Shown here in pieces: positions 3,674 through 64,000 of a stretch of DNA of 64,000 nucleotides. The notes beneath the pieces are model-generated. The model was not told where the DNA came from and did no database searches. It saw nothing but the letters and a program-made list of their open reading frames with translations. The DNA is from Raillietiella orientalis (Eukaryota). The first letter of the stretch is position 1, and each line of letters begins with the position of its first letter. Position numbers and translations under genes: made by a program. Where the stretch lies: assembly GCA_036172245.1 (NCBI GenBank), contig JAYWIR010000136.1, forward strand, positions 1 through 64,000, written 5' to 3'.

Positions 3674-3935
3674 TACCCTCCCTCCCTCCCCCTCCCAAGA
3701 AAACTTAGCCCTCCAAGCGTTTTTTTTTTTTGTTTTTGTTTTCTTTTATTTTTCCCGTCCCGGCGCCAGTGAAGAACCTGATCGACCTCCGGGTCGGTAA
3801 GGACAAGTGCTACTGAACTTCTGAACTGAATTTCTGACGTCGAAAAAAGAAAAATGTTAACAACATAGACTTTGTTACAAAATTTTGTAACTTCAAAATT
3901 TTAGTAATAAAAGCCCCGGCTTACCCGGGTGAAAA
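1784..3935 (+). mobile_element. 3' half of an element (RT C-terminal half, zinc finger, 3' UTR)
   Basis: Starts at RKAFDCVDQ; ends with a T-rich UTR and taataaaagccccggcttacccgggtgaaaaa. Confidence 0.88.
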
Positions 3936-4033
3936 ACCTGCGCCGGTACCACACGCGTTTTTGGTCAGCTCTCGAGAGCGAAGCCAAGACTAGGTGTTGT
4001 GTTGATTGGAAGTGCGGCCGTTCGAAGGCAGAA

Positions 4034-6990
4034 ATGCCTGAAGACGCCGCAGTACCTGCGACGGGAGATGTGAGGCCCACGTCTCCCCAATCTATGGAGG
4101 TGGGGTCATGCCCCACCAAAAAATCAGCCCCCGGCACCCCGGCGAGGGCGTGGAACAACGTGGCCGCGGCGGCTCCTTCGGACGTGGCCGCCGAAGTGCA
4201 GGCCTACATAAAGGAGGGCTACAACCCAGCCCTCCTTTACAAGGTAGGAAATCTTTATTCACCGCTTTCAACGCGGAAATTTGGAAACGCCATCCGTAGG
4301 ATGGAAATCTCTGACAAGGAGATTCTTTGCTTCTCGATTCGGAGCGGCTTGCAGTTTGCGGAGCTGATCTGCAAAGACGCAGCGCTCACACACAAACTGC
4401 TCTGCACGCCCGTTCCGTTCGAAGGGCGGAATCTCTTCTCACACACGGTGGATCACTCTATGGTGATCCACCTCACGGGTACAACGGTGCGGATGACCGA
4501 TGAAGCCATCCGCACTGAAATCAACAAATCCGCGGAGATATACGCGATGTGGTAAAAGCTTAACGCCTTTACTTATCGAGGCGCATTCAGTGGGCGAGTG
4601 GCCGCGCGCGTAGCTCTTCGCGAAAACAAAGAACTTCTTCACAAGCTTGAAGTCAACGACGAGCTCGTCGACCTCTGGTACGTTGGGAAGAAAAAATACT
4701 GTGGGCAGTGCAACACATTCGGGCATCTTAAAAAAAGATGTCCGGATGCCACATGCCCACCCTGCGGCGTGAAGGGCCACACTAGTGCTGTGTGCCCGGA
4801 GAACGCCGCGACAACGCCTTGAGCCCCTTCGACAAATAAGCGGAAGAAGGCAGAAAACCAAAAAAGACGCGACCAACAGACGACCTCAGAAGAAGTCGTG
4901 CACCAGGAGAAGGAGCCTCCAAAGGAGACTTCTGAGCCCACTGCCGAAGAGGAGAACTGGAAAGTCGTTTCAAACAAAAAAGCAAAAGAAACACACAAAA
5001 AAAAACAAAAACTCCTACAAAAAATAACAAAAATCAGAACACAAGCGTTCCGAAAAAACCCGCGGTCGGCAAGCCAAAAATTTCGCCGCGCGAGTCCATA
5101 AAGGAATCCCGTGTTACAATCCAGAGCGTTCCGTCGATCGAGCGTCGATCGGCGAACGCGACTCCCGCAACCGTCGCGAACGCCGCGGAACCGCCGCAGG
5201 AATCCTGCTACAAACACGCGAGCAGCAGCGACGAGAAAAACTTCGCGAAGGCGGCGATGCCACCCGGATACGCCGGGACGTTTATTAAAAACATTTCAAC
5301 GGTCAATACAGAACGTGGTACAAGGCCCCACTGACGGCCACGGAATGCCGGAACTGCCGGGACACCGGGACGCAGCCCGGTATGGCTCTCCACGGCAGTA
5401 AAGGGGGATGAAGGAAAAAACAAAAATAAAATAAAATAGAAAAACAAACCACAAAAATAGTTTGGAGGACCGGGAAGGGATCACAGAAAACTGCTGGGAG
5501 CGCCCATCCTTTGCAGGATGCCTTCTAGTTCCATTTTCAGCTTTCCTAGATGGGGCCATCGGATAGCTCTCTGCAGAAAGCGCGAAGCATACTCGATGAC
5601 GTCCCTCACGATGCAGTCTTCATCTTCGGCATCACTCCAGGCCGCCACGATACCACGAATGCAGCAAAGGGCTGCCAGGGCTGCGGCTGGACTGAGAGCG
5701 TCCCACACGAAGACAAGACTGACGATACATTCAACATTGCCACCATCCGGTATCCGGAGGGCCGTTTTCAGACGATCCCAAAGAATCCGGACGGCAGGGC
5801 ATTCAACTAAGAGGTGGGAAAGCGACTCCCGCTCCCCACACTTGGCACACGCAGGATTTACTCTTCCCCGCGTCCAGTGGAAGCGGCGCGCGTTGCAGGG
5901 TAGACCCCAATGCAGCCACAGAAGCGCCGATTCTTGCCACTTCAAGGGGAGAATCCTGGATCCAAGTAGAACCCGGGGCCACTTCAGGTCATCCAATCGA
6001 ATGCCGAGCAGTTCGCTCCATCTTTTTAATCCACGCGGCTGGAGACTAGGGGTCGTTGCATCTGTCAACTCTCCCATGGTCCAGCCGCTCATCATCTTCT
6101 CTCTGCCTGCGATACGGCAGCAGACTTGCCACCTTGGCTTCCGGCTTCCGTGAAGCGCCCTTTGGAGGAAGGGCAACGCCGTAACAAGGAATGTGCCTTC
6201 CGCCCACGTGCAACTCGGTGGAAATTCAAGAATTTCACGGAGTGCGGCGGGCGTATAAGCCGACTCGCAGGCAGTTCATCCGGTCTTCGCACCTTTGGTT
6301 CTGCTTATCCCAGGTGCCAGCAGTCTCTTCCAGCCAAGCGGAGAAGTTGGCAGGGCCACAAACCATCCAGTCGTTCTCCTTTGCCAGGGTTGCCATGCGG
6401 TCGAGCATTAGACCGCATCTTCGAATCTTCCGGCCAGGGCACAGAAGAAACGATGCGAGTCCTTCGCAGCGGGACACACGCCTGGCTAGGAGGCGGGCCG
6501 GAATGCACCAAGCGGTGCTCCACATCTTCGCTGCGATGGCGAGGGTCCGCCATCGCAGCTGGATTTCCACGTGAAGGCGGCGGAGGAACTCGCGGCCAGC
6601 TTAATGCAGCCGCCTAAGGCTGCAAAGAAGGCCGTCAGACGTCCGACGGAAGTTAAGGGCCCGGAAACTTCCGGGTCCGAGGCCGAAGCCGGAAACCCTC
6701 CCACCGTCGCCCTTCCGAAGAGGAAGGCGGGCCGGACGTCGCGCAACCCTATGCGCGTAGCTCCCCTTCAGGCTGAGGAGAAGGAGATGCGCTCGGATAG
6801 CGAAGAGGCGATGTCCGCCAGGTCGCGGGATGCCTCCATCGACAGCATCCGGTCGGTCCTTCCTATCGACCTCAGTCCGGCTGCAGACGTTCCGGTCGTT
6901 GCCGAAACGCCACCACCGCAGATGGACAACGACCAGCCGCCTCCCGAACAGGAGGCGGCAATACACACGCCACCACCATCACTAGTATGA
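4034..6990 (+). pseudogene. ORF1, disrupted and interrupted
   Basis: MPEDAAV start; CGQCNTFGHLKKRC and CPPCGVKGHTSAVC knuckles; internal stops; FAKAA|EELAA split by the insertion. Confidence 0.85.
5257..6572 (-). mobile_element. 5'-truncated element inserted antisense, 10-bp TSD
   Basis: TSD gaaggcggcg at 5247-5256 and 6573-6582; ORF2 C-terminus with CAKCGERESLSHLLVEC; stop at 5481; terminal hairpin. Confidence 0.9.
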
Positions 6991-7872: not shown

Positions 7873-8289
7873 ATGCCACCCGGATACGCCGGGACGTTTA
7901 TTAAAAACATTTTAACGGTCAATACAGAACGTGGTACAAGGCCCCACTGACGGCCAGGGAATGCCGGAACTGCCGGGACACCGGGACGCAGCCCGGTGTG
8001 GCTCTCCTCGGCAGTGCAGGGGGATGGGGGAAAAAACAAAAATAAAATAAAATAGAAAAACAAACCACAAAAAAAAAAAGTTTGGAGGGCCGGGAAGGGA
8101 TCACAGAAAACTGCTGGGAGCGCCCATCCTATGCAGGATGCCTTCTAGTTCCATTTTCAGTTTTCCTAGGTTGGGCCATCGGGTAGCTCTCCGCAGGAAG
8201 CGAGAAGCATACTCGATGACGTCCCTCACGATGCAGTCTTCATCTTCGGCATCACTCCAGGCCGCCACGATACCACGAATGCAGCAAAG
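7873..8289 (-). mobile_element. Short 3'-end fragment, same subfamily as 5257-6572
   Basis: Close copy of 5257-5670 including the terminal hairpin. Confidence 0.88.
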
Positions 8290-9508: not shown

Positions 9509-12500
9509 TTATCATTCGGGTACCCCCGGGGCGTATATTAAAAAACTTCACATGCGTGGTCCAAGGCCCCACCACTGCCGTAAACACAGGACCTGTCGGG
9601 ACACCGGGACGCAGCCCGGCGTGGCACTCCCCGACAGCGAAATCGGATAAGGGGAAAAACAAAAAGAAAAATAAAGACATAAAAAAACAAAAAGGGTTTG
9701 GAGGGTAGGGTAGGGATCACTGGTCGCTGTGAGGAGAACCCATCCTTCGAAGAAAGCCCTCGAGTTCTTTCCGCATATCTCCCAGTTGGGGCCATCCGGC
9801 AGCACTTCGCAAGAAGCGTTGGGCATACGGGATGACATCCCTCGCCTATGGACCCACTCCTTCGTTATTGGCGTCGCTCCATGCCGACACGATGCCACGG
9901 ACGCAGCACATGGCTACGATGCCTGCGGCTGGCTGCAGTGCGTCCTTCACGAAGAGGGGCCGAAGAACGTCTCTGGAAGTGCTGCCCGTAGGGAGCCCGA
10001 GGGTCGTCCCGAACCGTTCCCAAAAAGGACGGAGGGCACCACAATTTACAATAAGGTGGGAAAGCGAGTCCTGCTCCCCGCACCTGGCACACGCAGGATC
10101 CACAGCTCCCCTTGTCCAGTGGAAGCGGCGCGCGTTGCAGGGTAGACCCCAGTGCAACAGGAGCAACGCCGACTCTTGCTACTTGAGGGGCAGAATCCTG
10201 GATTCCTTTATCACCGGGAGCCTCTTCAGCTCATCCCTGGGGATGGCGAGCAGCTTGCTTTATCTTAATAACCCTCGCGGCTGGACGGTCTCGGTCGTGG
10301 CGTCGGCCAGATCTCCTGTTGTCCAGCCGCTAATCAACTTCTCGCGTCCCTCGATGCAGCAGGAGACTTGCAACCTCGGCGTCCGTCTGCTGTGAAGTGC
10401 CCACCTCATGAAGGGCAGCGCCGTAGCTAAGCAGGTCGTCTCTGCCCACGTGCATCTTGCTGGACTCTTTAGGAGATTCCGCAGCGTGCAGCGGGCGTAG
10501 CGGCTGCATCGAAGACGATTCCACGTCTCGCGGATGCTCTGGTTGACCACTGACCACGTTTCAATATTCTCCTCCAGCCAGGCGGGGGAGTTGGCGGGGC
10601 GGCAAACCATCCAGCTTTTCTCCTTGGCCAATGTTGCTATGCGCGCGAGCGGTAGGCCGCATCTTCGCATCTTCCGGACACGGCTCAGAAGAAAAGACGC
10701 GGATCCATCGCACCGAGACACACGGCAGGCCAGGAGGCGGGCCGGAACGCACCAAGGGGTGCTCCACATCTTCGCTGCGATGGCAAGGGTTCGTCACCGC
10801 AGCTGCTTCTCCACGCGCTTTAGCGTCAGGAGGCCAAGACCAACGTCCCGACGCGGAGCGCACAAGTCTCTCAGTGGTACTTGGGGCTTCACCTTACCCC
10901 AAAGGGCGACACGGAGGAGATCCTTCGTCCTCTTCTTGGATTCCACGGTATAAGGGCAAACAAAAAGCAAGGGACGGAGGATAAGGCCCGCGAATTGGTT
11001 TCAAACCGCGGCCCGTTCCGGCAAGTGAAACTTGCCTTCCAGGAACGGGCCGATCGCCGTCTCGACTTTTTGGAGGCAGCTGGACCACGCTTTCGCAGGG
11101 GTGAATTCCCCCAACAGCACACCGAGGTACTTGATGCAACTCACCGTGAAGATCCCCAGACGGAACCAGTCCTGCTGCCCTGCCCACGCCGCACCTATTG
11201 GCACAACCGACGATTTCGCCCTGTTAACCTGCAGTCCGGTATCGCGGCTGAGCAGATCGAAGAAGTCTCCGACCGCCTTTGCCGGGGTGGACCCTGGCAA
11301 CAAGAGCAGAAGATCGTCGACGTACGCTGCAACGGCGGGCGTGCCGGGTCACGAGCTCGGCAATGGAGCCAGAGTCACCCTGTACGTTCTCAGCACCAAC
11401 TCTAAGTAGGTGCTGAAGTGCAGGAAGCTTAGACTATCTCCCAGCCTTATGCCCCGATGCTCCGGCACGCCATGCACCTTGTGACCGCTGAAAGAGACGG
11501 TAATCATTGCATTCCGCCAGCAAGATAGCAGGTAGGAAATCAGGGAGGGTGAAACGCCCATGCAACCCAAAAGCTGCAAGAGAGGTTCCTGGTCTACACA
11601 GTCGAACGCCTTGTGGAGATCGACTGCGAGCGCTAGGGCCCCCTTCCCTGCCCGGGTATCCCTTCCCAGCCCGGCTGGCGGCCCCAATGCGGGGTTGCCG
11701 ACTTTCCCTATCCCTTTCTTTTCTCTTCTCTGCAGGTGCACCCATGTGCTTGCGAAGAAGAGGTTGGCATCCATACTTCGCCCGGGAACAGCATAAGTCT
11801 GCTCCGGGCTAATTACGGATTCTGCCACCTGCCCCAGACGCGAAGCCCATAGCCCTGCTATCAACTTGGCGTCCGTATTCACGATTGTGATCGGACGCCA
11901 GTTCTTTAAATTCCTGAGGTCTCCCCCTTTCGGTAGGAGCCTCACTCTGGCTGACCGAAACGAGGCGGGAACATCGCCTTCGTCTCGGATCAGCCTGACC
12001 AACTTAAGCAGCAGGGGTGCCAGCTCTTCCGCGAAGCTCAGAAAGAATTCCGCAGGCAAGCCGTCTTCCCCTGGAGCTTTACGCCTCTTGAGCCTTTTGA
12101 TACTGGCGAGAATTTCGCCGGTGGTAAAAGGCTCGTCGACGCTTTCCATCTCCTACTCCCCTGTTGCCGGGGCGCCATCCGGAAGCAAGCGCCAAGAGGC
12201 GTTCCTATCCGGAAGCTCCCTGGCGTAAAGGGAGGAATAAAAACATCACACGAGATGCCGCACCGACGCCGCTGACAAACATTCCCGGCCCTGGTCTTCC
12301 AGCTAGCTGGCCGAACCGGATTGCCAGGCTAGGCGTTCGGCCCCGGCGCGGTAATCAGCCAGGCGACGGACATTAAGGGTTCTCTCGTACCTACGAGCCT
12401 GCAAATAGGCCCTATGGTTGCAAGCACCCTTGCCGAATCCGGAGGGCAGGCGATCCATGGGGAACTGCTCACAGAACTCGCGGACCGATTTCTTAAAAAG

Positions 12501-12525
12501 GTCCCAGTCGTTGAGATTCCGGAGC
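9509..12525 (-). mobile_element. 3' two-thirds of an element (subfamily C), degenerate ORF2 ending at 9717
   Basis: KAPGEDG, WRPITIVN, DLHKAFD, YVDD and the CARCGE zinc finger; 3' UTR and terminal hairpin. Confidence 0.88.
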
Positions 12526-14431: not shown

Positions 14432-14786
14432 TTCTCACCCGGTCACGCCGGGGCGTTTATTCCATATAACATAACCAAAAAAAAAGCAATTATACAAAAT
14501 AAACCAGTTGGGAACCAAACTCCCAACCGACGACTGAACAAGAATGAAGAGAATATTGCTGGCACGCAGACCAGAGTAACAGTTTTGTGAACGGTGTGGG
14601 GGGGCGGGAAACACAAAGAAACCAAAATAAAATAAAAACAATGAATAAGGAGGACGGGATAAGGGTCTTTGGGATCGCTCTGGAAGACACGGGGATAAAA
14701 GCATGGGCACCGGAAATTTTACCGAGCGAACGGGGACGGGGTATGGGTGGGCGAGAGGTCGCAGGGGTCACCGGAATACGCCGTTC

Positions 14787-23793: not shown

Positions 23794-24007
23794 TCCCTTC
23801 GCGCTCCCTTCCTGATTTTTGTTTATTTTTTGTTTTCTTTTTGTTTCGTTCCCCTCCCCGCTGCTGCCGAGGTCGACCGCGCCGGTCTGCGCACCGGTAG
23901 CCCGGCAGGCTATATCTTTCCAGGGCGTGGCTGGACTACTGGTCCAGTCACAGATTGTATAAGTTTATTCGTGAGAATAAACGTCCCGGCGCACCCGGGT
24001 TTCAATG
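20362..24007 (+). mobile_element. ORF2 and 3' UTR of an element (subfamily E; probably the continuation of 12526-14431)
   Basis: APE resumes at AQEIERI; ends ataaacgtcccggcgcacccgggtttcaat. Confidence 0.85.
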
Positions 24008-44526: not shown

Positions 44527-44536
44527 CGCAGTGACG

Positions 44537-44550
44537 GCAGACGTGTTTCT
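44537..44550 (+). promoter_or_regulatory. Conserved 5'-terminal GACGTGT motif (representative copy); putative internal promoter
   Basis: Present within about 10 bp of the 5' end in most subfamilies. Confidence 0.5.
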
Positions 44551-44620
44551 TTTGCTGCTCCTGCGTTTTAGCGCGAGGTTGTAGGTTGTGTGGTGTTTGG
44601 GCGGTGTTTTGAAGGCAGAA

Positions 44621-46366: not shown

Positions 46367-46374
46367 CAACACCA

Positions 46375-49300
46375 TTGCGAGGAATCGCCTCCTCTAGCCG
46401 CTTGCGAATAACCTGTTGGAACTTCAACGGGTTGACGGCATGCTGGCGACGCGTCGGCGGGCGGTTGCCGCCGCATTCCTCAACTTCGACTGCTTCTTGC
46501 TGGCGCCTCACAACAAGCAGGCGGGGCCAAGTTTGAAAATCACGGGAAGAGGGCGCTGCGGCTACTGGCGGGAGGATGAACGAGACCACTCACCGCGAAT
46601 TGGCGCCTTTCTGCTGAAGCCGGCAGTCGAAAACTCTCTGCGTAGCGTTCGCTTCGACGTGGACGGTCGAGTTGGACAACTTGTTCTCAAGTGGTCCGAA
46701 TCGATCGACCTCGTTGTGACGAACATATACGCGCCAGTGAGCAACCACGGGGCCGAGGAACGCACTGCGTTCCTCGAATCCCTGCGGCGAGACTGGCTGG
46801 CTGAAGCGGACGTACGGAAGGCGCACCTCATTGCGGGCGATTTCAATCTCCGCCTGCTAGCAGGTGCACCCAACCGACGAGCACAGCTGGTCAACGAGTT
46901 GTGCGCAGCAATGAATGCACGCAACTTGTTGGCCGGTGATACCGGGAGAGATCGGAACATCGATCACATGTTTCTCGACAACCACCTGTGCACGCGGGTG
47001 GGAACTCGTGGAACGCTCCCGGCAGAGCTGTCCGACCATCCACGGCTCGTGCTCGACCTACATCCGCGCGACAAGGGTCCTCCCCTGAAAACGTGACGCC
47101 TGCCAGGGGACTGGTTCCGCCTCGCAGGAGCGGCGGAACATCTGCGCGCCTTCCTGCGAGAATTACATCTTCAGTCGCTCGCGGACTGGGACGAAATGAA
47201 GTACTCAGTCCGCGAGTTTTGCGAACAGCTTCCCCTGGAGCGCCTTCCTCCGGGCTTCGGAGAAGGTGTCAGGAACGAGCGAGCCTACCTTCAGGCCCGC
47301 CGGTATTCCAGACGACCCGACGTTCGTCGCCTGGCGGAATTCAAAGCTGAGGCGGAGAGGCAGGCCTGGCAGTCAGGCTCGGCCTGCTTGCTGGACCATC
47401 AGGGCCAAGAACGCTCCAGCCCAGCTCAGGTAAGCCGCATCGTGCGGGAGTTTTATTCCTCCTTATACGCGCCATTAACACCCGAGTGCCAATTCGCGCA
47501 GCAGTTGCTGCTGGATGGGGCTCCCGCGATCGGGGAGGAAGTTTGTTCCAGGTTGTCGGAACCATTTACGGTGGCAGAGATTGTCTCCGCCATCAGTAAA
47601 TTAAAGACAAGAAAGGCACCAGGGGAGGACGGCCTGCCCGCGGAGTTTTACAAACACTTCGCGACAGAGCTGGCTCCCCTGGTGCTCAAGCTAAGTACGC
47701 TGATCCGCGAACACGGCGAAGTTCCCGCCTCGTTCCGATCAGCAAAAGTACGTCTCCTGCCGAAGTCAGGAGACCTACGCAACATTAGCAACTGGCGTCC
47801 CATCACAGTGGTGAATGCGAACGCAAAGTTGTATGCCAAATTGTGGGCTGAGCGTTTAGGACCGGTGGCGGATTCCGTGATCAGCCCGGAGCAAACATAC
47901 GCTGTTCCCGGGCGAACCATGGAAGCCAACCTGCTCCTCGCCAGCACATGGTGGCAGTTGCAACAGCGCTTTGCACAGGACGGTCAAGGGAGCCTTGAGC
48001 ACCCCTCTGACCAGAGAGACCCGGTAGAGGGTGGGGCGGAATCGGCGGGAGCCTTCGCCGTCGCTGTCGACTTGCGCAAAGCATTCGACTGCGTCGACCA
48101 GGATCTCCTTCTGGAGCTCCTGGAACGAATGGGATTCCCGTCCGTGCTCCAGTCTTACCTGCCCTCCTGCTGGCGCAACGCGTTGATTAACATTGTTTTC
48201 AGCGGCCGGCACGTGTATGGCGTGCCAGTGCGCCGCGGCATCCGGCAGGGTGACAGCCTGAGCCCCTTGCTCTTCAGCATCTACTTTGAGTTGGTGCTGA
48301 GGGCATACAGGGTAACTCTGGCAACCCTGCCGAGCTCGTGTCCCGGCACGCCTGCTGTGTCGGCCTATGCAGACGATCTTCTGCTGCTGCTTCCCGGGTC
48401 CACCCCGGCGAGTGCACTCGAGGACTTCTTCGAGTTGCTGCGCCGCGGGACGGGCCTGGAGGTGAACAGGGCGAAGTCGTCCATAACTTGTACCGGCTCG
48501 GCGTGGGCTGGACGGTCGGACTGGATCCGCTTGGGGATCCCCACGGGCAGGTGCTTTAAGTACCTTGATGTTCCGTTGGGGGAATTCTGCCTGACAGAAG
48601 CCTGGTCCGACCGTCTACAAAAGGCATCGTTGGCGATCGGTGCGTTTCACGAAGGCAAGTTTTACTTGCAGGAACGGGCCGCAGTGTGGAACGCGTTTGC
48701 GGTCCCCCTTCTACGCCCTTTACTTTTTGTGTGCCCCGCTTCTTATTTCGTCAGGAAAAGAGCAGCGGGCCTCCTACGGACAGTCCTTTGGGGCAAAGGG
48801 AGGTCCCGTGTGCGTCTTAAAGACTTGTGCGCTCCACGTAAAGACGGTGGACTTGGCCTACTTACGCTGGAGCGCATGGAAGTACAATTTCAGTTTAGGA
48901 CTCTCGCCCTTGCGGCGGAATTGTGGGACACGCCTTGGTGCGGTCCAGCACGACTTCTGGCCCAGCGAGCCTCAGGATATAGCGGACTTTCTTCGTTTCT
49001 CTGGGCGCGCGACCGCAGACAAGCACACTCCGGCTTTCATCTGCGGCGCATGGCCGTTGTGGTTCGGAAGAACACCTGGATCTCCTGCGTCCCAGGGAAC
49101 TACTCGGCATGGTTGCACGAGACAGTCTCCACTTGGGAAAAGCTTCACGTTCCGGCGGGCACAAAAAACACTTGCCTGAAAAGGCACGCCCGCTGGACGC
49201 TACAGGAGATCGTGCAGTCCCACGATCAGCTTCTGTGGGCCCTGATAACCCCGCTTGCTCCTGTGCTGCCCTTCCTACAAAACGCTAGAGACAACAGGGA

Positions 49301-49937
49301 GCAGGGGAAATGGACCGTATCCTGCACCATCAAAAGTAGGACACAAAAGATTAAGGCGTGGACATCTCGGCAGCTAGCGGACGCTGCGACGCCGAGTGTT
49401 CCGCCCAACGGAATCCGACGCTAAGGAGAGCTACTCGGACTATCTCCGGCGGAGATGAAGTGGCCCCCAGCGTCTTGGAATAGTGACTCTCTCCCCCTGA
49501 AATGGCAGGAGGTGGCGCTGCTCGTGATACATTGGGGTTTACCCTTCAAGGCACGCCTCTCTCACTCCACTCGGGGGGCTGTGGATTCCCAGTGCGACCG
49601 GTGCGGGGAGAAAGAGACATTCCCCCACCTCCTTATTGAGTGCATTGCTCTCCGCCCTCTCTGGGATCGTCTTGCAGCAATCCTGGACATTCGCGGAGGC
49701 GGCCCTAAAGATGTTTTTAGGCGACTCTTCTTGCGTGATGCCTTGTCCCCTCCCGCTACTGTGACAGTTCTTTGCTGCATTAGAGGGATCGTGTCGGCTT
49801 GGAACGCGACAAGAAGAAGGCGCCAACCTTGCGGCAATGCTGTACACTGGAGTCGCCTTTTTGTGAGAAACATTTGCAGGTGGAGACACCTGGGTGCACA
49901 ACGGACGCAGCTGGTGAAGATCCTGAACAGGATCTAG
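46375..49937 (+). pseudogene. ORF2 of element I, disrupted
   Basis: Garbled APE start at about 46420-46610; stops at 47094 and 49422; RT motifs intact. Confidence 0.9.
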
Positions 49938-50196
49938 AGGACCTTTCAGCGTGCAATGTGATTCCCTTCCCGCCCTCCCTTCCCAAACATAAGTACTCCC
50001 TCCAACTTTTAAATTTTTTTTCTTTGTTTTGTTTTTTTCTTCCCGTTCCCGCGCGTTGGAAGGACCTCGCCGGTTTAGAACCGGCAAGAAGCAAGCTGCT
50101 TTGTGCTGAACCATCAGGTTCTTCACCCGAAAATTACATGTATTTTTATTTTTTTAAATAAATCCTCCGGCATATCCGGGTAAAAACGCAGTGACG

Positions 50197-53100: not shown

Positions 53101-54565
53101 TTTGCCCCGCCCTTTATTTTATTCGGAAACGAGCAGCGGGCCTCCTGAGGACAGTCCTTTGGGGCAAAGGGAGGTCCCGTGTGAGGCTCAAAGACTTGTG
53201 CGCTCCACTTTAGGACGGTGGACCTGGCGTACTTACGCTGGAGCGCATGGAACTACAACTTCGATTCAGGACTCTCGCCCTTGCGGCAGAATTGTGGGGC
53301 ACGCCTTGGTGCGTTCCAGCACGCCTCCTGGCCCAACGAGCCTGCGGAATCGGCGGACTTTTGTCGTTTCTGTCTGCGCGCGTCTGCAGAAGACCATACT
53401 GTGGCTCTATGCTGCGACGCATCTTTGTTGCGGTTCGGGAGAACGCCTGGATCTCCTGCCTCCCAGGGAACTACTCCGCCTGGTTGCACGAGTCAGTCTC
53501 CACCTGGGTAAAGATCCACGTTCCGGCGGGCACAAGGAACACTTGTATGAAAAGGCACGCCCGCTGGACGCTGCAGGAGATCGTGCAGTCCCACTACAAG
53601 CTTCTGTGGGCCTTGATAACCCCCCTCGCCCCAGTGCTGCCCTTCCTTGTGAATGCCAGGGACAGTAGCGAGCAGGGGAAATGGACCGTGTCCTGCACTA
53701 TAGGCGGCAGGACACAATCGCTAAAGGCGTGGACATCCCGGCAGCTAGCTGACGCTGCGACGCCGAGTGTCCCGCCCAACGGAATTCGACGCTGGGGCGA
53801 GCTACTCGGACTATCTCCGGAGGAGATGAAGTGGCCCCCAGCGTCCTGGAACAGTGCATCCCTCCCCCTGAAATGGCAGGATGTGGCGTTGCTTGTGGTC
53901 CTCTGGGGACTTCCATTCAAAGCACGCCTTCATCACACAACCCGGGGGGCTGTGGATCCTTATTGTGACCGGTGCAGGGAAAAAGAGACCTTCCCCCACC
54001 TTCTCATCGAGTGCAGTGCCATCCGCCCTTTATGGGATCGTCTCGCGGCGATCCTGGACTTGCGCGGATGCGGCCCAAAGGACGTTTTCAGGCGCCTCTT
54101 CTGTAGTGACGCCTTGTCCCCGCCCGCTAGTGTAGCAGTCCTCTGCTGCATCAGAGGAATAGTGGCGGCTTGGAACGCCACCAGAAGAAGGCGTCAGCCA
54201 ACCGGCAACGCCTTACACTGGACTCGCGTTTTCGCGCGAAGTGTCTGCAAGTGGCGCCACTTGGGCGCTGAAAGGACTCAGCTTGTGCGGATCCTGAATA
54301 GGATCTAGAGGACCTCTCCACGCGCACCGTGATCCCTTCCCCGCCCTCCCATCCCTACAACATTTGTTCCCCCCCCCACATTTGAACTTTTTGTTTCTTT
54401 TTGTTTTTTTTTATTTCCCATCCTCGCGCATCGGAAGGACCTCTCCGGCACGGAGCCGGTAACCAGCAAGCTGTTATGGAGTGGTGAACCTTCGGGTTCG
54501 CCACGCGACAATTTTTCTGTTAGTTTATTTCTATGAAATAAATGCCCCGGCACATCCGGGTGTGA
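50197..54565 (+). mobile_element. H/G-type element: ORF1 C-terminus (to 50742), ORF2 and 3' UTR
   Basis: Resumes after the TSD at VTSPSADD; ends aaataaatgccccggcacatccgggtgtga. Confidence 0.9.
50751..54308 (+). pseudogene. Near-intact ORF2 (APE-RT-zinc finger, ~1185 codons), one in-frame TAG at 53211-53213
   Basis: The 820-aa and 353-aa ORFs are in the same frame; all catalytic motifs are present. Confidence 0.92.
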
Positions 54566-54574
54566 ACGACCGTA

Positions 54575-54726
54575 TTTCCCATCCCCGCGCATCGGAAGGA
54601 CCTCTCCGGCACGGAGCCGGTAACCAGCAAGCTGTTATGGAGTGGTGAACCTTCGGGTTCGCCACGCGACAATTTTTCTGTTAGTTTATTTCTATGAAAT
54701 AAATGCCCCGGCACATCCGGGTGTGA
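54575..54726 (+). repeat. Tandem copy of the terminal ~150 bp of the 3' UTR
   Basis: Nearly identical to 54414-54565; separated by acgaccgta. Confidence 0.92.
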
Positions 54727-54737
54727 ACGACCGTAAA

Positions 54738-56309: not shown

Positions 56310-59167
56310 TCATCACTCGGGTACGCCCGGGGCGTTTACTAATAAACTTTACATGCGTGGTACAAGGCCCCACCACGGCCGTAAACACAGGACCTGTCGG
56401 GACATCGGGACGCAGCTTGGCGTGGCACTTCCCGACAGCGAAAGGGGATGAGGGGAAAAACAAAAAGAAAAATAAAGAAATAAAAAAAACAAAAAAAGTT
56501 TGGAGGGCAGGGTAGGGATCACTGGTCGCTGTGAGGAGGGCCCATCCTTCGAAGAAAGCCCTCGAGGTGTCTCCGCATATCTCCCAGTTGGGGCCATCCG
56601 GCAGCTCTTCGCAAGAAGCGCTGGGCATACGGGATGACATCCCTCGCCTGTGGACCCACTCCTTCGTTATTGGCGTCGCTCCATGCCGCCACGATGCCAC
56701 GGACGCAGCACAAGGCTGCGATGGCTGCGGCTGGCTGCAGGGCGTCCTTCACGAAGAGGGGCCGAAGAACGTCTCTGGGAATGCTGCCCGTAGGGAGCCC
56801 TCGGTTCGCCCCGAACCGTTCCCAGAGGGGTCGGATGGCAGCACAGTCCACAATAAGGTGAGGAAGCGACTCCCGCTCCCCACACCTGGCACACGCAGGA
56901 TCCACAGCTCCCCTCGTCCAGTGGAAGCGGCGCGCGTTGCAGGGTAAACCCCAGTGCAACAAAAGCAACGCCGACTCTTGCCACTTGAGGGGCAGGATCC
57001 TGGATTCCTTCATCACCGGGGGCCACTTCAGCTCATCCCTGGGGATGGCGAGCAGCTCGCCCCATCTTCTTAGTCCTCGCGGCTGGACGCTCGCCATCGT
57101 GGCGTCGGCCAGTTCTCCTGTTGTCCGGCCGCTGATCAACTTCTGGCGTCCCTCGATGCAGTAGGAGACTTGCCACCTTGGCGTCCGGGTGCTGTGAAGT
57201 GCCCTCCTTAGGAAGGGCAGCGCCGTAGCTAGGCAGGTCGTCTCTGCCCACGTGCATCTTCCTGGACTCTCCAGGAGATTCCGCAGCGTGCAGCGGGAGT
57301 AGGGGCTGCATCGAAGACGATTCCGCGTCTCGTGGCTTCTCTGGTTAACCACTGCCCACGTTCAATATTCTCCTCCAGCCAGACGGGGGAGTTGGCGGGG
57401 CAGCAAATCATCCAGATGTTCTCCTTGGCCAATGTTGCGATGCGCCCGAGCAGTAGGCCGCATCTTTGCATATTCCGGCCACGGCTCACAAGATAAGACG
57501 CGAGTCCATTGCACCGGGACACACGGCAGGCCAGGAGGCGGGCCGGAGTGCACCAATGGGTGCTCCACATCTTCGCTGCGATGGCGAGGCTTCGCCACCG
57601 CAGCTGCTTCTCCACGCGCTCCAGCGTCAGGAGGCCGAGACCGCCGTACCGACGAGGAGCGCTTAAGTCATCTAGAGGCAGACGTGGCCTCCCTCTGCCC
57701 CAGAGGGCGATGCGAAGTAGGTCCTTGGTCCTCTTTTTAACGTCACGGGGGACGGGGCACACTAAAAGCAGGGGGCGGAGGATGGGAGCCGCGAAGGCGT
57801 TCCACACCGCGACCCGTTCCGGCAGAAGGAACTTGCCTTCCAGGAACGGGCCGATTGCCAACTCTACCTTCTGGAGACGACCTGACCAGGCTTCTGCGAG
57901 GCAGAAGTCCCCTATCGGGACACCCAGGTACTTCAGGTACCTGGCCGTGAAGATCCCCAAGCGGATCAAGTCAGGCCGTCCGACCCACGTCGCACCCACC
58001 GGTACGACCGACGACTTCGCCTTGTTTACCCGCAATCCAGTCCCACGACTTAGCAGGTCGAAGAAATCCTCTACTGCGGCTGCCGGGGCGGACATGGGCA
58101 ACATGAGCAGAAGGTCGTCGGCGTATGCTGCTATGGCGAGCGTGCCGGGGCACGAGCTGGGCAGGGCAGCCAAAGTCACCCTGTACGCTTTCAGCACCAA
58201 CTCAAAGTAGGTGCTGAAGAGCAGGGGACTGAGGCTATCGCCCTGCCGTATGCCCCGTCGCTCCGGCACGCCGTACACCTGTTGGCTGGAAAAGACGATG
58301 TTGACAAAGGCATTGCGCCAGCATGAGCTCAGGTAGGAGAGAAGGAAGGGTGGGAAGCCCATGCGACCCAGGAGCTGCAACACTAGCTCCTGGTCTACGC
58401 AGTCGAACGCCTTGTGGAGATCAACGGCGATCGCTAGGGCTCCCTTCCCAGCCCGGGTATCCATTCCCAGCCCAGCTGGCGGTCCCAAAGTGGGGTTGCC
58501 AATGTTTCCCCCTGTTTCCTTCAGGCAAGGCTGCACATGGAACCATGTGCTCGCGAAGAACAGGTTGGCATCCATACTTCGCCCGGGAACAGCGTATGTC
58601 TGCTCCGGGCTAATTATGGAGTCTGCCACCTGTCCTCTACGCGAAGCTCACAGTCCAGCGATCAGCTTGGCGTCCGTATTCACATTTGTGATCGGACGCC
58701 AGTTGCCTAGGGATCTCAGGTCCCCTCCCTCCGGGAGGAGCCTCACACGGGCTGACCGAAACGAGGCGGGAACGTCGCCTTCGTCTCGGATCAGCCCGGT
58801 CAACTGGAGCACCAGGGAAGCCAGCTCTGTCGCGAAGCATTAAAAAAATTCCGAAGGAAGGCCGTCCTCCCCTGGCGCCTTACGCCTCTTAAGCCTTTTA
58901 ATACCGGCGAGAATTTCACCGGTAGAAAAAGGCTCGTCGGGGCTGATCCTCTCCTCCTCCCCTATTGCCTGGCCTCCGTCCGGAAGCAGGAGCCGCTTTC
59001 GGGGCAGGTGCCCCTATCTCCATGGGTACGGGGGACGTTCGCCCGGCCCCCACCCCACATTCACTAGTGGCGGGATCTGGCATTTCTGCCATCCCCCGAC
59101 CACTGATGCACCGCACTACACCAATAAAGTCGAACGAGTCAGAAGCGCGCAGAGAACACGTCTGAAC
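56310..59167 (-). mobile_element. Subfamily C element: 3' UTR, ORF2 RT and zinc finger (stop at 56519), joined near 58990 to a 5' end with ORF1 start at 59083
   Basis: YADD and CARCGE motifs; CAGACGTGTTC and GCAGAAATG at the right end. Confidence 0.85.
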
Positions 59168-59829
59168 GTCGGCACTGCTGGTGTTGCATTGGGGGCTTCC
59201 TTGCAACCCCCGCCGACACCACTGGACGAAAAGGGGTGTCAACCCTAATTGTGTCAGCTGCGGGAGAGAGAATACCTCCTCAACCAGTTAGTGGATTGTG
59301 TTGCCCTCCGTCGCTTGTGGGAACGCTTTGCCGCAGCCCTGGGGATCCCCGGAGGCAACCCCTGAGACGCTTTGCGCCCCTTCTTCGTCCGTGACGCCCT
59401 GCCTCCAGCGGCCTCGCTTGCAGCCTTGTGCTGCCTACGCGGGATCGTCGTGGCATGGAGCAAAGCGACGGGAGGATCCAGCGACGGGGATGCCAGCGTG
59501 TATGCCGCCCGTTTCCTCAGGATGGCGACGCGATGGCCCCATCTGGAACCACACAAGCAGAAACAGCTTGCCGGCATCCTCCAGAGGATGACGGACCGTA
59601 CCAGCAGACTGTGATCCCTTCCCGATCATTCCCTGATTTTTGTTTATTTTTTGTTTTCTTTTTGTTTCGTTCCCCCTCCCCTCTGCTGCCGAGGTCGACC
59701 GCGCCGGTCTGCGCACCGGTAGCCCGGCAGGCTATATCTTTCCAGGGCGTGGCAGGACTACTGGTCCAGTCACAGATTGTATAGGTTTATTCCTGAGAGT
59801 AAACGTCCCGGCGCACCAGGGTTTCAATG
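59168..59829 (+). mobile_element. 3' fragment of subfamily E
   Basis: Homologous to 23346-24007. Confidence 0.9.
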
Positions 59830-59842
59830 GAGAATCCGGAGC

Positions 59843-62800
59843 GTCGAGCGGACGTGTCTTTTCGTTGCTCCTGAGTTTCATTTCCGTTGGTGCTTGTGCG
59901 TGGTGTGGGTGGAGGATTAGGCAGCAATGCCTCATACCAAAACCGGTGAGCATCCGGGGGCGATGACCTCATTGCCCCCGGAGGAGATGGAGGTGGGGGC
60001 TCCCGCATCAGTGGAGGCTTCCGCCAGCATGGATGCGCCCCGGCCCTACCCAGGGCTTGGAACGCCGTGGCTGCGGCACCTACGCCAGCAACTATGGCGG
60101 AAATGCGCGCTTACCTGGAGGAGGGGTATAACCCACCCCTTCTATATAAGGTAGGCGGTTTATATTCTTCCGAGAACGCGCGCGCCTTTTCGCAGGCGAT
60201 GCGCGTTCTCGGTGTACAAAAAGAGGAGCTTCTGGCTATGTCCGTCAGAAGCGGGGATCAATTTGTGGAAGTTATCTGCAAGAAGGTAACTCTTGCGCAG
60301 AGACTTCTGCGAACCCCCGTCATTAAGGGCAGCCGGAGGCTTCTCCGCATTACTACAGACCGGTCGTTGATCATTCACCTGACCGGTATCACGTTACGAA
60401 TGACGAAGGTGGCCGTCCGGAACGGATTAAAAAAATTTGCAACTGTCCACGCGCTGTGGGGAAAGTCTACTCCTTTTGTCGATTACGACGGGGTGCTTGG
60501 CGGCCTGGGTACAGCGCGAGTGACGGTTCGCGAGGGACGTGAGTTTCCCCACAAACTCACCGTCAACGGTGAATCGGTTGACGTATGGTACGTAGGAAAA
60601 CCCAAGTTTTGCGCCTGCTGCAGCAGCTTTGGCCACCTTAAAATGAGGTGTCCGAGCGTGCAGTGCCAGCAATGCAAAAAAGCGGGGCACACCCGTATGG
60701 TGTGCACCCAAAACACAGTCCGCGTCGTGTCCGCGAAAAACGCGAGAAAGCGCGCGGCTAAAAAGAGAAAGAAGCTGGCAGCTCGTGCTGCTGCTAAGGA
60801 GGTCACCTCCGCCACCAAGGCGAAGGCCAGCCCCGAGACCCCGGCGAAAACCGCCGAAAAGGTCGAGGGCGAGGGTCAAGAGCCAGGGTGGCAAAAGGTC
60901 GACCCCAAGAAAAAATTCCATAAGAAGGGAAAGAACGTGGCGAAACGGAGCGAAACCGCTCTGCAACGCGAAAAAATTAAAAGCTGCTGCGTCGTTGTAG
61001 AGCGGATTTCCGCCATCGACGAATGCGGCGCTAAAGAACTCGCCGCTGCCCCTGCTCAACCCTCCGTTGACAAAGTCCACAAGGAGGGGAGCGAGACGGC
61101 GGCTTCCGTCATCGAGCCCACGCTCGATGACGTCGCCTTCGAGAGCGCCGCGGAGAAGCTGGCTCTCTCGTTGCAGCCGGTTGCCCCCAAGTCTGGCAAT
61201 CCGGGTCGTCCAGCTTGCTGGACGACCAGGGCCGGGAATGTTCGTCCCCGGCGTCGGTACGGCATCTCGTGCGGAGTTATTATTTCTCCCTTTACGCCAG
61301 GGCGCCCCCGGATCAAGATGCCTCTCGGCTCTTGCTTCCGGATGGTGCCCCGGCAATAGGGGGGGAGGAGTGGTTAAGCCTCGATGAACCTTTTACCACC
61401 GGCGAAATTCTCGCCGGTATCAAAAGGCTCAAGAGGCGGAAAGCTACAAGGGAAGACGGCCTTCCCGCGGAGTTCTAACAGAGCTTCGCGGAAGAACTGG
61501 CACCCCTACTGCTTCAGCTGACAAGGCTGATCCGACACGAAGGCGATGTTCCCGCCTCGTTTCGGTCAGCGAGAGTGAGGCTCCTTCTGAAAGGGGGAGA
61601 CCTTAGGAATTTGAACAACTGGCGTCCGATCACGATTGTGAATACGGTCGCCAAGTTGGTTGCCGGGCTATTGGCTTCGCGTCTGGGGCAGGTGGCAGAA
61701 TATATAATTAGCCTGGAGCAGACATATGCTGTTCCCGGGCGAAGTATGGATGCCAACCTCTTCTTCGCGAGCACATGGATGCACGCCCAGAGGTGTCAAA
61801 AGGAAGGGAAAGGAAAAATCGGTAACCCCACTTTAGGGCCGCAAGCAGGGCAGGGAATGGACTCCCGGGCGGGGAAGGGGGCCTTAGCGCTCGCAGTCGA
61901 TCTCCATAAGGCGTTCGACTGTTTTGACCAGGGGCTTTTGCTGGAGCTCCTGGTTCGCATGGGCTTCCCACCCTCCTTGATTACCTACCTGCGCTCTTGC
62001 TGGCGGAATGCGATTATCACCATCTTTTTCAGTAGTCAGAAGGTGTATGGCATGCCGTTGCGGCGAGGCATCAGGCAGGGAGATAGCCTTAGTCCCCTGC
62101 TCTACAGAACCTACTTTGAGTTGGTGCTGAGAGCCTACAGAGTGACTTTGGCCTCCTTGCCGAGATCGTGTCCCGGCACGCCCGCCGTAGAAGCCTTTGC
62201 CAACGACCTTCTGCTCCTGTCACCTATGTCCACCCCGGCTTCGGTGGTCGAGAAGTTCTTCGATCTGCTCAGCCGTGGGACCGGACTGCAGGTCAACAGG
62301 GCGAAGTCGTCGGTGGTGCCAGTAGGTGCGGCGTGGGCAGGGCAGCAGGACTGGGTCCGTCTGGGGATCCCCACGGCGAGGTGCCTCAGGTACCTTGGTG
62401 TGCCGTTGGGTGACTACTCCCCTGCGGAAGCGTGGTCCAGCTGTCTTCAAAAAGTCGAGACGGCGATCGGCCCGTTCCTGGAAGGCAAGTTTCACTTGCC
62501 GGAACGGGCCGCGGTTTGGGACGCCTTCGCGGCCCCCATCCTCCGCCCCTTGCTTTTTGTTTGCCCCGCCCCCAGAGAATGCAAAAAGAGGAAGAAGGAC
62601 CTCCAGAAGATGGGAAGATGTTAAGCGGCTGGACCACAGGAGAACTGGCGGACGCCACGACCCCGAGCGTCCAGCCGCGTGGACTAATGAGATGGGGCGA
62701 GCTGCTCGCCATCCCTACGGATGTGCTGAAGTGGCCCCCGGTACTAAAGGAATCCAGGATCCTGCCCCTTAAGTGGCAAGAGTCGGCGTTGCTACTTCTG

Positions 62801-64000
62801 CACTGGGGTTTACCCTGCAACGCACGCCGCTTTCACTGGACAAGGGGAACTGTGGATCCCGAGTGTGTCAGGTGCGGAGAGCGGGATTCGCTCTCCCACC
62901 TTATTGTGGACTGTGCTGCCATTGGACCCCTCTGGGAACGGTTCGGGGCGACCCTGGGGCTCCCTACGGGCAGCACCCCCAGAGACGTTCTTCGGCCCCT
63001 CTTCGTGAAGGACGCACTGCAGCCAGCCGCAGCCATCGCAGCCTTGTGCTGTGTCCGTGGCATCGTGGCGGCATGGAGCGACGCCAACAAAGAAGGAGTG
63101 GGTCCATACGCGAAGGATGTCATCCCATACGCCCAACGCTTCATGCGGAGAGCTGCCGGATGGCCTCAACTGGGAAATATACGGTCGGACCTCGAGGGCT
63201 TCCTTGAACGAATGGGCCCTCCTCACAGCGGTCAGTGATCCCTTCCCTGCCCTCCAACTTCTTTTTGTATGTTTATTTTTTTATTTTTCTTTTTGTTTTA
63301 TCCCCATCCCCCTTCGCTGCTGAGGAACGCTACGCTGGGCTGCGTCCCGGCGTCCCGGCAGGTCCAGTGCATATGGCCGTGAGCGGGGCCTTGTACCGCG
63401 GATGTAGAGTTTTTTAAAAATAAACGCCTTGGGCGTACCCGGGTGTAAACTCACAAGGCTGGCAAGAAGGCCGTCAGGCGTCCGGCTTCCCCTCTGGAGT
63501 CGGCCACTTCCGACCTCGAGGTGAAGGCCGGAAACACAGCATCCATCTCTGCGGCACCCCGTAAAAAGGCAGGACGAAAGTCCACAATGCCCCAGAAGAT
63601 CGTCTCCCCCGACGAAGGGGAAGAGATAGCTTCCGCAAGCGAGGGTGCCATGAGCGTGGGAAACTCCCGGGACCCGTCGCCCGAGAGAATTCCACGCTCG
63701 GACACGGAAGGGATGGTGAGGATGGAGGCCGAACAGGTACCCCAGGCGCCTGAAGAGGCCTCCGTCCTCGTTCCGATGGTCGTCGTACCGATGGTCCTTT
63801 CCTACACCTGCCCCGCGGCAGGTGCCGCGACGCCACTTTCCCAGCCATAATGCCGGGAATAGCCTCTCGCCGTCGTCTTGTGAGCGCTTGTTGGAACGTG
63901 AACGGGCTAAGCGACGACGGCAAGAGGCGTGACGTAGCCGCCACCCTGGCATCCTTCGACCTGGTGCTGCTGCAGAAGATCCACGTGATCTGTGCAGATC
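59843..64000 (+). mobile_element. Subfamily D element (ORF1 59927-63850, ORF2 from 63850), interrupted at 61200-63453
   Basis: Homologous to 12526-14418; TAATG at 63848-63852. Confidence 0.88.
61200..63453 (+). mobile_element. 5'-truncated subfamily C element inserted in sense, 12-bp TSD with one mismatch
   Basis: caagtctggcaa at 61188-61199 and caaggctggcaa at 63454-63465; RT with YADD changed to FAND; internal deletion near 62610; stop at 63238. Confidence 0.87.

Follow-up and report, generated by a model that had tools for sequence, protein, structure and literature searches.

The window analyzed here, the first 64,000 nucleotides (64 kb) of contig JAYWIR010000136.1 from the Raillietiella orientalis assembly GCA_036172245.1, has a GC content of 57-60% throughout and consists almost entirely of retrotransposon copies of the non-LTR type (without long terminal repeats), which lie on both strands and are nested in one another. 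The subject of this analysis is the short module in which these long interspersed nuclear elements (LINEs) end, namely the hexamer AATAAA, a GC-rich hairpin and a tail of about six nucleotides. An initial annotation of the sequence had noticed this terminus at 17 copy ends and had interpreted it as a signal for recognition by reverse transcriptase (RT) or for 3' processing. Self-comparison of the window separates about eight lineages, 70-85% identical in their RT-coding DNA, as well as recent duplicates, with full-length and 5'-truncated copies occurring side by side. The full-length copy A (44537-50186) was used as the coordinate reference, and the youngest copy is F (41587-44526), which is 98.0% identical to 30093-33026 over 2947 bp.

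In order to place the elements by their proteins, 20 long open reading frames (ORFs) of the window were scanned against Pfam, which identified RVT_1 in nine of them, Exo_endo_phos (the APE endonuclease) in four and a CCHC zinc knuckle (ORF1) in three, while six gave no match. A single ORF (53247-54308) matches zf-RVT just under threshold, with 25.4 bits against the Pfam cut-off of 27.5, and a weaker match lies in 22888-23793; PF13966 is present in most full-length ORF2 homologues. The ORF at 50751-53213 combines Exo_endo_phos (E 1.3e-13) with RVT_1 (E 1.9e-24), that is, an APE-type endonuclease followed by RT in ORF2. The solved protein closest to this ORF2 fragment is human LINE-1 ORF2p (8sxt; E 8e-45, 157 bits), and R2 proteins match it with E 5e-16 and 61 bits. 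Homologues of ORF2 in a large protein collection reach no more than about 35% identity and are mostly unnamed, the few named ones being vertebrate L1-like proteins at 25-29% identity, and an atlas look-up returned generic APE and RT clusters only. Judged by protein similarity, the elements are L1-like LINEs (APE, RT and a putative zf-RVT).

The string CCCGG-N5-CCGGG occurs 11 times in the window against 0.25 occurrences expected, with a maximum of 2 across 100 shuffles, and at all 11 exact sites AATAAA lies exactly 3 nt upstream of the hairpin (0.01 expected). Allowing up to three substitutions yields 13 sites, and direct reading of the coordinates reveals AATAAA-N3-CCCGG-N5-CCGGG, exact or decayed, at each of the 17 ends, all of which are 3' ends of LINE copies carrying the motif in sense orientation; in the best-preserved lineage the module is located about 250 nt past the ORF2 stop. 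The observation that 17 ends share the hexamer and hairpin, a few with stem mutations, is confirmed as real, well located and far beyond chance. Beside the 11 exact ends there are six decayed or indel variants, namely a 6-nt loop at 29314, one-base insertions at 9515, 56316 and 63443 that produce stems of the CCGGG-CGTA-CCCGG type (CCTTGGG at 63443), and point mutations at 50180 (TCCGG arm) and 59821 (AGTAAA, CCAGG). The loops are as variable as initially listed (CTTAC, CGTAT, CATAT, CGCAC, CGCAA, CGTGA), and CACAT and CGAAAT are seen in addition. When a covariance model was trained on five of the ends, it detected 16 of the 17 (E <= 0.011), missing 9515, and its search of the 64 kb returned no further copy of the motif and no carrier resembling a short interspersed nuclear element (SINE) or otherwise unrelated to LINEs, so that the window shows no partner for the trans-mobilisation which the initial annotation thought possible. 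The 17 ends are not all independent: 34469 and 50180 are segmental duplicates, as are 23999 and 59821, the pair 54560/54721 belongs to a 161-bp repeat (99.4% identical), and 7879, 9515 and 56316 lie within homologous composite blocks. We count about 10-12 separate insertion events in roughly eight lineages.

Searches for the motif in other collections returned matches that are due to chance or unrelated. A metagenome motif scan gave eight loci representing two distinct sequences (seven loci share one of them or a close variant), all with 59-67% GC and lacking the AT-rich upstream context, of which only one (L006) was found by the model search, with E 5.8. The 21 loci of a viral-contig scan all read AATAAAAAACCCGG..CCGGGT, resemble bacterial or phage terminators and were set aside as unrelated. 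As the scanned collections contain few eukaryotic genomes, these scans give no evidence that the motif is restricted in its distribution.

The positions at which the elements end could be fixed by target-site duplications of 9-13 bp at four insertions. Copy A is flanked by a perfect 10-bp duplication, CGCAGTGACG, at 44527-44536 and 50187-50196, and its relative A' by the same 10-mer at 34453-34462 and 40103-40112; it has no other occurrence in the window even with one mismatch. Joining the flanks of insertion 5257-6569 produces a gapless alignment across the junction to three homologous LINE regions. Insertion 61200-63453 is flanked by the 12-bp duplication CAAG(G/T)CTGGCAA (61188-61199 and 63454-63465), for which an empty site exists at 13872-13883, and a DNA contig joint 61187->63454 with 12 shared letters, from a comparison of 44001-64000 with the three sequencing runs that a run search returned, all DNA and none recorded as RNA, matches the empty-site form. 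This joint was not accepted as a polymorphism, as it may derive from the paralogue at 13872-13883, and the short Logan contigs of these runs are otherwise uninformative about termini. On either side of a 152-bp copy (54575-54726) stands ACGACCGTA, at 54566-54574 and 54727-54735, and the same 9-mer is uninterrupted at 40215-40223. At four further ends (14438, 25181, 29314 and 30102) uninterrupted target homologues show that exactly 6 nt separate the hairpin from the junction. The initially assigned end coordinates proved accurate wherever they could be verified, at 5257, 50186/34463 and 63453 by target-site duplications and at 14432, 25175, 29308 and 30096 by uninterrupted homologues. The bases CGC, CGCCG and ACGACCGTA that follow 6-nt tails were considered as element sequence and rejected, since target-site duplications and uninterrupted homologues identify them as target sequence.

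Of the independently fixed termini, seven are found 5 or 6 nt behind the hairpin (+5/+6) and one 10 nt behind it (+10); the end 23999, placed from the start of the neighbouring element, lies at +8 at most. The tails supported by target-site duplications read TAAAAA, TGGCAT, TGTGA and TGTAAACTCA. At none of the 17 termini is there a stretch of seven or more A (or of T, where the element lies on the other strand), A/T runs do not exceed 12 anywhere in the window, and no microsatellite is found at any of the element ends; even the youngest copy F ends in TGAAAA without poly(A). The absence of long poly(A) and the shortness of the tail, both part of the initial annotation, are borne out by these data. 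The elements thus lack the poly(A) or A-rich 3' tail that is typical, if not universal, of mammalian and land-plant L1. Canonical poly(A) sites are cleaved within a window of 10-30 nt. The distance from hexamer to terminus is 23-29 nt here, which falls into this range if the DNA terminus is taken as the end of the RNA.

To assess the conservation of the module relative to its surroundings, we aligned 11 representatives. The last 30 columns show a mean pairwise identity of 0.73, compared to 0.07-0.43 in the preceding 3' untranslated region (UTR) and about 0.5-0.6 in the C-terminal coding part of ORF2; they form the top 30-column bin within the last 570 columns and are equalled within all 870 by one coding bin only. 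Resolved by segment in ten lineage representatives, identity is 0.42 in the 11 nt upstream of the hexamer, 0.97 in AATAAA, 0.64 in the N3 spacer, 0.91 and 0.96 in the 5' and 3' stem arms, 0.53 in the loop and 0.63 in the first six tail bases, and it falls to 0.33 in the next six bases beyond +6. For comparison, these lineages are about 70-80% identical in their RT-coding DNA. The edge of the conserved block coincides with the element end given by the target-site duplications, so that both approaches agree. One member of each duplicate pair has mutated in the motif since duplication (50180 as compared to 34469, and 59821 as compared to 23999). This decay in dead duplicates indicates that the conservation reflects selection on active lineages and not a mutational cold spot.

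In isolation the GC hairpin has a predicted folding energy of -7.1 to -7.7 kcal/mol, and it is predicted in most terminal folds, with U-G pairs in the stem occurring in decayed copies only. Since the stem is invariant and the loop variable, covariation cannot furnish proof of this hairpin, and only invariance and predicted stability, not covariation, argue for it. A conserved 3' stem-loop is combined here with a diverging remainder of the UTR, as in LINEs of the stringent type. Upstream of the GC hairpin, AAUAAA(C) serves as 3' arm in a second hairpin, rich in AU, in at least 6 of 10 lineages, for example GUUUAUUC-GUGA-GAAUAAAC. TTTATT precedes AATAAA by 20 nt or less at 8 of the 14 termini with an exact hexamer, and the other 47 AATAAA sites show this arrangement only 8 times, as antisense readings of those palindromes. 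Moreover, 11 of the 17 ends have TGTA in the 45 nt preceding the hexamer, at distances of 14-36 nt, as opposed to 3 of 68 control windows further upstream. The AU hairpin, the upstream TGTA and a helix overlapping the GC hairpin, which is treated below, are new with respect to the initial annotation, as is the finding that the tails have no complementarity to the nicked targets.

Wherever the target of an insertion could be determined, it proved to be another LINE copy, so that the window represents nested self-insertion of the kind known from Zepp-like clusters. The targets begin with CGCAG, CGCCG, CAAGG, ACGAC, ACAAC, TCGAA, ATCTC and CGCGG. At the eight determinable junctions we found neither a T-rich primer strand nor complementarity to the tails, which makes priming by annealing unlikely. 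Homing of new copies to hairpins already present was considered and rejected for these eight insertions, as they are located at hairpin-free sites.

The position of the motif at real LINE termini, its constraint above that of the rest of the UTR and the absence of poly(A) together point to a cis-acting role in 3'-end formation and/or RT recognition. At a probability of roughly 0.5, we favor a module in which a poly(A)-type signal and a hairpin position reverse transcription without base pairing, that is, stringent-type recognition in an L1-like element. From 5' to 3', such a module would comprise the TGTA-type element, AAUAAA (as the 3' arm of the AU hairpin in several lineages), the invariant 5-bp GC hairpin after 2-3 nt and a tail of about 6 nt (UGAAAA in consensus) with which the DNA copy ends. 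AAUAAA would act as a poly(A)-type signal and have the transcript cut about 24 nt downstream, at the last base of the element; with the hexamer 23-29 nt before the terminus and TGTA upstream, the layout is that of a poly(A) site, and the transcript therefore probably ends at or near this base. ORF2p or the CCHC-containing ORF1p could then bind the GC hairpin and set the first templated base 5-6 nt downstream, and target-primed reverse transcription would start on the nicked GC-rich target without primer pairing and without copying poly(A). As the DNA copies end 5-6 nt past the hairpin whatever the target, the tail is not copied as an A run and the primer cannot anneal to it, the start is likely set by protein-RNA recognition, for which the GC hairpin would be the obvious handle.

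Several observations weigh against this reading. The longest RT-bearing ORF of the window has 885 aa, compared to 1120-1300 aa for most full-length homologues, so that no ORF2 copy appears evidently intact. The GC stem pairs in 93.8% of 80 cells without a single double-sided change, a value equalled by shuffles, and the terminal 60-nt folds reach z scores of -2.1 to -2.8 in 5 of 11 cases, the other 6 not differing significantly from shuffles. A clear AU hairpin is seen only in about 6 of 10 lineages, and the counts for its closing pair 12-23 (UA in five and CG in three distinct sequences) stem from a model-fitted alignment that leans towards structure. In addition, a competing helix of the form A-N-G-C / G-C-N'-U, composed of the spacer and the start of the loop (alignment columns 17-20 with 26-29, e.g. 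44502-44514), does covary, with CG in 9, UA in 5 and AU in 1 at one pair, and 0 of 500 shuffles reach its covariation score; it shares bases with the GC hairpin's 5' arm, so that the two are mutually exclusive. This helix is far weaker than the GC hairpin, and its covariation comprises two independent change events only. The termini at +8 and +10 suggest that the start is not perfectly fixed, and all steps at the RNA level are read from the DNA sequence of one 64-kb window.

A more far-reaching version of the favored model, which we regard as possible yet rather doubtful, would make these elements an L1-like lineage that has dispensed with poly(A)-dependent priming. The GC clamp would serve as a ruler of exactly 6 nt, an APE-type element would initiate in the manner of R2, on GC-rich nicks and with the primer unpaired to the template, and about eight lineages would have shared the module through 20-30% divergence while homing into each other to build a centromere-like array, with AAUAAA in the AU hairpin acting as a regulated or alternative signal and the overlapping helix representing the other state of a switch.

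The module could alternatively be a pure 3'-end formation signal, providing strong and precise cleavage and polyadenylation or termination against read-through in head-to-tail arrays, in which case the RT would ignore the hairpin and cDNA synthesis would set in right where the poly(A) begins. In favor of this, no segment is better conserved than the hexamer (0.97), which is kept even in lineages without the AU hairpin, the terminus follows the hexamer at the expected distance, the upstream TGTA is enriched, and most tails end in AA or AAAA, possibly the first bases of poly(A); furthermore, 3' tails often run straight into the 5' start of another element of like orientation (3936, 24008/59830, 44527 and 54727), where a terminator would be useful. 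However, the primer strands of the eight junctions are not T-rich and nothing would hold initiation at the first A, the length of the A run is constant within lineages (TGAAAA, TAAAAA), and the tail TGGCAT, defined by a target-site duplication, has no terminal A run, for which reasons we consider this explanation unlikely, if worth keeping in view. Less probable again is a non-polyadenylated end comparable to that of histone mRNAs, where a protein bound to the stem-loop would make or protect an end trimmed about 5-6 nt after the stem and AAUAAA would be retained for the AU hairpin or as a protein site. The geometry of stem-loop plus 5-6 nt at no fewer than seven (at least 7) independently fixed termini agrees with this, as do the DNA copies without poly(A), the pairing of AAUAAA in a hairpin in about 6 of 10 lineages and the 6-nt tail that persists behind the 6-nt loop at 29314, so that the end tracks the hairpin. 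Yet the hexamer is invariant even where its partner strand is lacking (3929, 14438, 25181), and the terminal module bears no likeness to known stem-loop families, with 0 Rfam matches at the gathering threshold.

The palindromes might instead function in the DNA, as a recognition site of the endonuclease (homing) or as a site for second-strand synthesis or recombination. Each of the two hairpins is a palindrome at the DNA level, conservation of the stem concerns its sequence and not covarying pairs, the elements insert almost only into one another with tails often adjoining the next element, and both boundaries of a 10-kb inverted duplication fall within 6-8 nt of a hairpin. Nevertheless, eight insertions (four documented by target-site duplication or empty site, four by homologues) lie in hairpin-free coding parts of ORF1 or ORF2, and a homing site need not sit exactly at the element's own terminus. 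A' shares the target-site duplication of A and has no hairpin upstream, from which it follows that the adjacency of A to the hairpin of F arose later, by re-use of CGCAGTGACG; on this evidence a DNA-level signal appears highly unlikely. Least credible of all, and very improbable in our view, is a shared end without function that was simply inherited or spread by recombination or template switching. Exchange of 3' parts does occur, B' being 98% identical to F over the 3' 2.9 kb and B 91.6%, and the stem shows no covariation. Against this stand the confinement of conservation to about 30 nt with sharp drops on either side (0.42 upstream, 0.33 beyond +6), the decay of the motif in dead duplicates, and the divergence by lineage of the loop (0.53) and the N3 spacer (0.64), which speaks for long vertical descent under selection and not for recent exchange.

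With regard to known systems, R2 elements have a precise 3' terminus without poly(A), the structure of their 3' UTR is recognised by the protein, no pairing between primer and template is needed, and occasional extra bases are found at the junctions. R2 uses a restriction-like endonuclease and a single target in 28S ribosomal DNA (28S rDNA), unlike the elements described here with their APE endonuclease and many targets; by analogy, the initiation logic would nonetheless resemble that of R2 more closely than that of L1. Human L1 nicks at TTTT/A sites, where its A-tail anneals. The elements of the window are like human L1 in that it provides the closest solved protein (8sxt) and in having AATAAA near the 3' end, and unlike it in the absence of poly(A) and in their GC-rich nick sites. 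The long poly(A) of human L1 is used by ORF2p together with a T-rich nicked primer, as set out in the relevant passages of PMC10830416 and PMC3747384.

For the L2 clade, including UnaL2/UnaSINE1 of eel and ZfL2 of zebrafish, the 3' stem-loop is thought to be bound by the element's own RT, according to the passages of PMC4176376 and Ohshima 2012/2013 that deal with it. As in stringent LINEs of that clade, a conserved stem-loop lies a few bases from the end and the rest of the 3' UTR diverges. L2-clade stringent LINEs differ in ending in short tandem repeats for template slippage, e.g. (TGTAA)n, of which there are none here, and the proteins in the window are L1-like. Comparable stringent stem-loops have compensated stems and a fixed loop or flank (Ohshima 2012), whereas here the stem is invariant and the loop free. 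Poly(A) as the usual end of L1-clade elements, as stated initially, is true of mammals and flowering plants only; in green algae, of 15 L1 families only 2 end in (A)n, 8 have other repeats and 5 have no 3' repeat (Ohshima 2012, PMC3472496). In a monocot L1 lineage (maize LINE1-1_ZM with ZmSINE2/3) a conserved 3' hairpin is common to the SINEs, and Chlamydomonas L1-1_CR (ZeppL-1_cRei) has about 80 nt in common with SINEX-3_CR (PMC3472496). The contrast initially drawn, with 3' stem-loop recognition as foreign to the L1 clade, was overdrawn, as stringent and tail-less L1 families exist (PMC3472496). The functional 3' module is supported by the constraint and the real termini, and it is the novelty of an RT-recognition or 3'-processing signal that had been overstated.

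Like these stringent or tail-less L1 families, the elements here combine L1-type proteins with a conserved hairpin-forming 3' end; LINE1-1_ZM and L1-1_CR, however, end in poly(A) and have other motifs (a CGAG flank and a UCU loop in the maize lineage). A terminus of AATAAA, hairpin and 6 nt is not described in the main text of PMC3472496, though one of the five repeat-less families could resemble it, and full-text searches of open-access papers returned no description of an AATAAA-hairpin terminus. Zepp, in the parts of PMC8226300 and PMC3446292 that concern it, has about 61% GC and two ORFs and forms nested head-to-tail clusters of tens of kb with often 5'-truncated copies, and clusters of Zepp and ZeppL are putative centromeres of green algae. 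The array in the window, L1-type, self-inserting and nested, with 57-60% GC, resembles Zepp/ZeppL in its organisation. It differs in that Zepp is listed with an (A)n end (Ohshima 2012, Table 1 note b), which is missing here, and in that about eight lineages coexist, compared to the single ZeppL family of Chlamydomonas. What sets the present elements apart from all compared systems is the combination of a hexamer in or next to an AU hairpin, an invariant 5-bp stem, a free loop, a 6-nt repeat-less tail and GC-rich, non-complementary targets.

Among L1-type elements, template choice is understood well in a single case, the mammalian element with its dependence on poly(A), and that the L1 clade had stringent recognition ancestrally is so far a proposal (Ohshima 2012, PMC3472496). 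If the favored model of hairpin-positioned reverse transcription holds, a minimal hairpin, a fixed terminus and L1-like proteins would constitute a compact system for this question, in which a 45-nt RNA and one ORF2p should suffice for binding, structural and retrotransposition tests. It would also bear on self-targeting LINEs that build nested arrays, putative centromeres in some algae. If the module is only a strong poly(A) site, it would be an ordinary feature of one repeat family. The individual termini and associated features are collected in Table 1.

Table 1. Terminal modules, target-site duplications and the reference element of the 64-kb window (scores refer to the covariance model)
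Feature	Position	Strand	Remarks
3' module	3896..3935	+	LINE copy 1784-3935; AATAAA, CCCGG-CTTAC-CCGGG, tail TGAAAA; 36.5 bits; next + LINE begins directly after 3935 (ORF1 ATG motif at 4027)
Target-site duplication, 3' copy	5244..5256	-	CGCCGCCTTCGCG in element orientation; partner 6570-6582, 1 mismatch
3' module	5257..5295	-	5'-truncated copy 5257-6569; tail TGGCAT (6 nt); 13-bp target-site duplication
Target-site duplication, 5' copy	6570..6582	-	Belongs to insertion 5257-6569
3' module	7873..7911	-	425-bp 5'-truncated copy, 94.6% identical to 5252-5672; antisense within APE-coding region of + LINE, adjoining TTCGG
Decayed 3' module	9509..9550	-	Copy 9509-12509; AATATA, CCGGGGGTACCCGAA; missed by the model
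3' module	14432..14473	-	Divergent copy ~14432-19700; tail TGAGAA (6 nt), by uninterrupted target homologues
3' module	23960..24007	+	Two hairpins, GTTTATTC-GTGA-GAATAAAC, then CCCGG-CGCAC-CCGGG; 66.8 bits; tail TTTCAATG (up to 8 nt); C-type LINE starts at 24008
3' module	25175..25218	-	Tail TAATAA (6 nt), by two uninterrupted C-type homologues
3' module	29308..29352	-	6-nt loop CGAAAT; tail TGAAAA (6 nt), by two uninterrupted homologues
3' module	30096..30141	-	Copy B' (30096-34452); tail TGAAAA; 69.3 bits
3' module	34463..34508	-	Full-length copy A' (34463-40102); tail TAAAAA; 71.3 bits
3' module	44481..44526	+	Copy F (41587-44526); tail TGAAAA, no poly(A)
Full-length element A	44537..50186	+	5' UTR ~85 nt, CCHC-knuckle ORF1, broken ORF2, 3' UTR, module 50141-50186
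3' module	54520..54566	+	Copy B (50187-54565); tail TGTGA(A)
3' module	54681..54727	+	152-bp copy repeating the end of B (161-bp period, 99.4%)
Decayed 3' module	56310..56350	-	AGTAAA; CCGGGCGTACCCGAG; antisense at the same TTCGG site of the APE-coding region; 23.5 bits
3' module	59782..59829	+	Segmental duplicate of 23960-24007, decayed since duplication (AGTAAA, CCAGG)
3' module	63406..63453	+	Insertion 61200-63453; tail TGTAAACTCA (10 nt)

Some target sites within the array were used repeatedly. A inserted directly before CGCAGTGACG, and F followed at this site later, given that A' lacks F; the site directly before ACGACCGTA appears to have been used twice. At the latter, a 161-bp unit is repeated twice at 54412-54735 (99.4%), its second unit being the last 152 bp of B plus ACGACCGTA; the 152-bp copy arose either by tandem duplication or by a very recent reinsertion at the same nick, with extreme 5' truncation. 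A TTCGG site in the APE-coding region forms the junction in three homologous composites. The junctions 7873, 9509, 56307 and 41587 correspond approximately to positions 2726-2737 of element A, just after TTCGG, and comprise three antisense insertions at most about 10 nt from the 5' truncation point of copy F. Either a single old composite was duplicated afterwards (the blocks have 71-80% identity across the junction), or the point is a favored nick site. The target-site duplication of 5257-6569 begins with CGCCG, and these five bases also come after the tail of the copy at 7873, its relative with 94.6% identity. Four further junctions begin with CGC. Nicking just before CGC may be preferred, or a few bases may have been carried along from a source copy by 3' transduction.

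The tandem pair A and B is present a second time as a 10-kb inverted duplication, 30094-40112 (-) versus 44527-54568 (+), with 94.7% identity. Its boundaries, which both fall at element ends, are the first base of the target-site duplication of A and a position 8 nt after the hairpin of B, and no target-site duplication was found flanking the 10-kb unit. It could have arisen by retrotransposition of a read-through transcript of A and B or by palindrome-mediated template switching.

Two further features recur at the ends of the copies. The 3' UTRs contain short T-rich tandem repeats of 10-12 nt, such as TTTTTGTTTAC in about three copies, located 100-200 nt upstream of the terminal module (23816-23846, 59637-59667, 54387-54417 and 29471-29503). 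At the T-rich 3' UTR stretches 59647-59681 and 63262-63299 the contig depth runs into the thousands in two DNA runs (X2, X3), which is probably due to low-complexity cross-matching of other sequences in these runs and not to element copies. At the other end, full-length copies start at 12513, 24008, 59830, 44537, 54736 and ~3936, usually right after the 3' tail of another element, so that head-to-tail arrays result, and have a short 5' UTR (~85-100 nt) that carries, 5-25 nt in, a sequence like GACGTGT(C)TTTT. The ORF1 start codon is spanned by GGCAGAAATGCC in nine copies from several lineages (9 matches versus 0.58 expected), at 4027-4038, 12603-12614, 27966-27977, 40014-40025(-), 40307-40318, 44614-44625, 54819-54830, 59079-59090(-) and 59920-59931. 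This sequence could fold as GGCA-GAAA-UGCC, a 4-bp stem closed by a GNRA-type loop that contains the AUG, and it may be a conserved 5'-end signal for translation or packaging.

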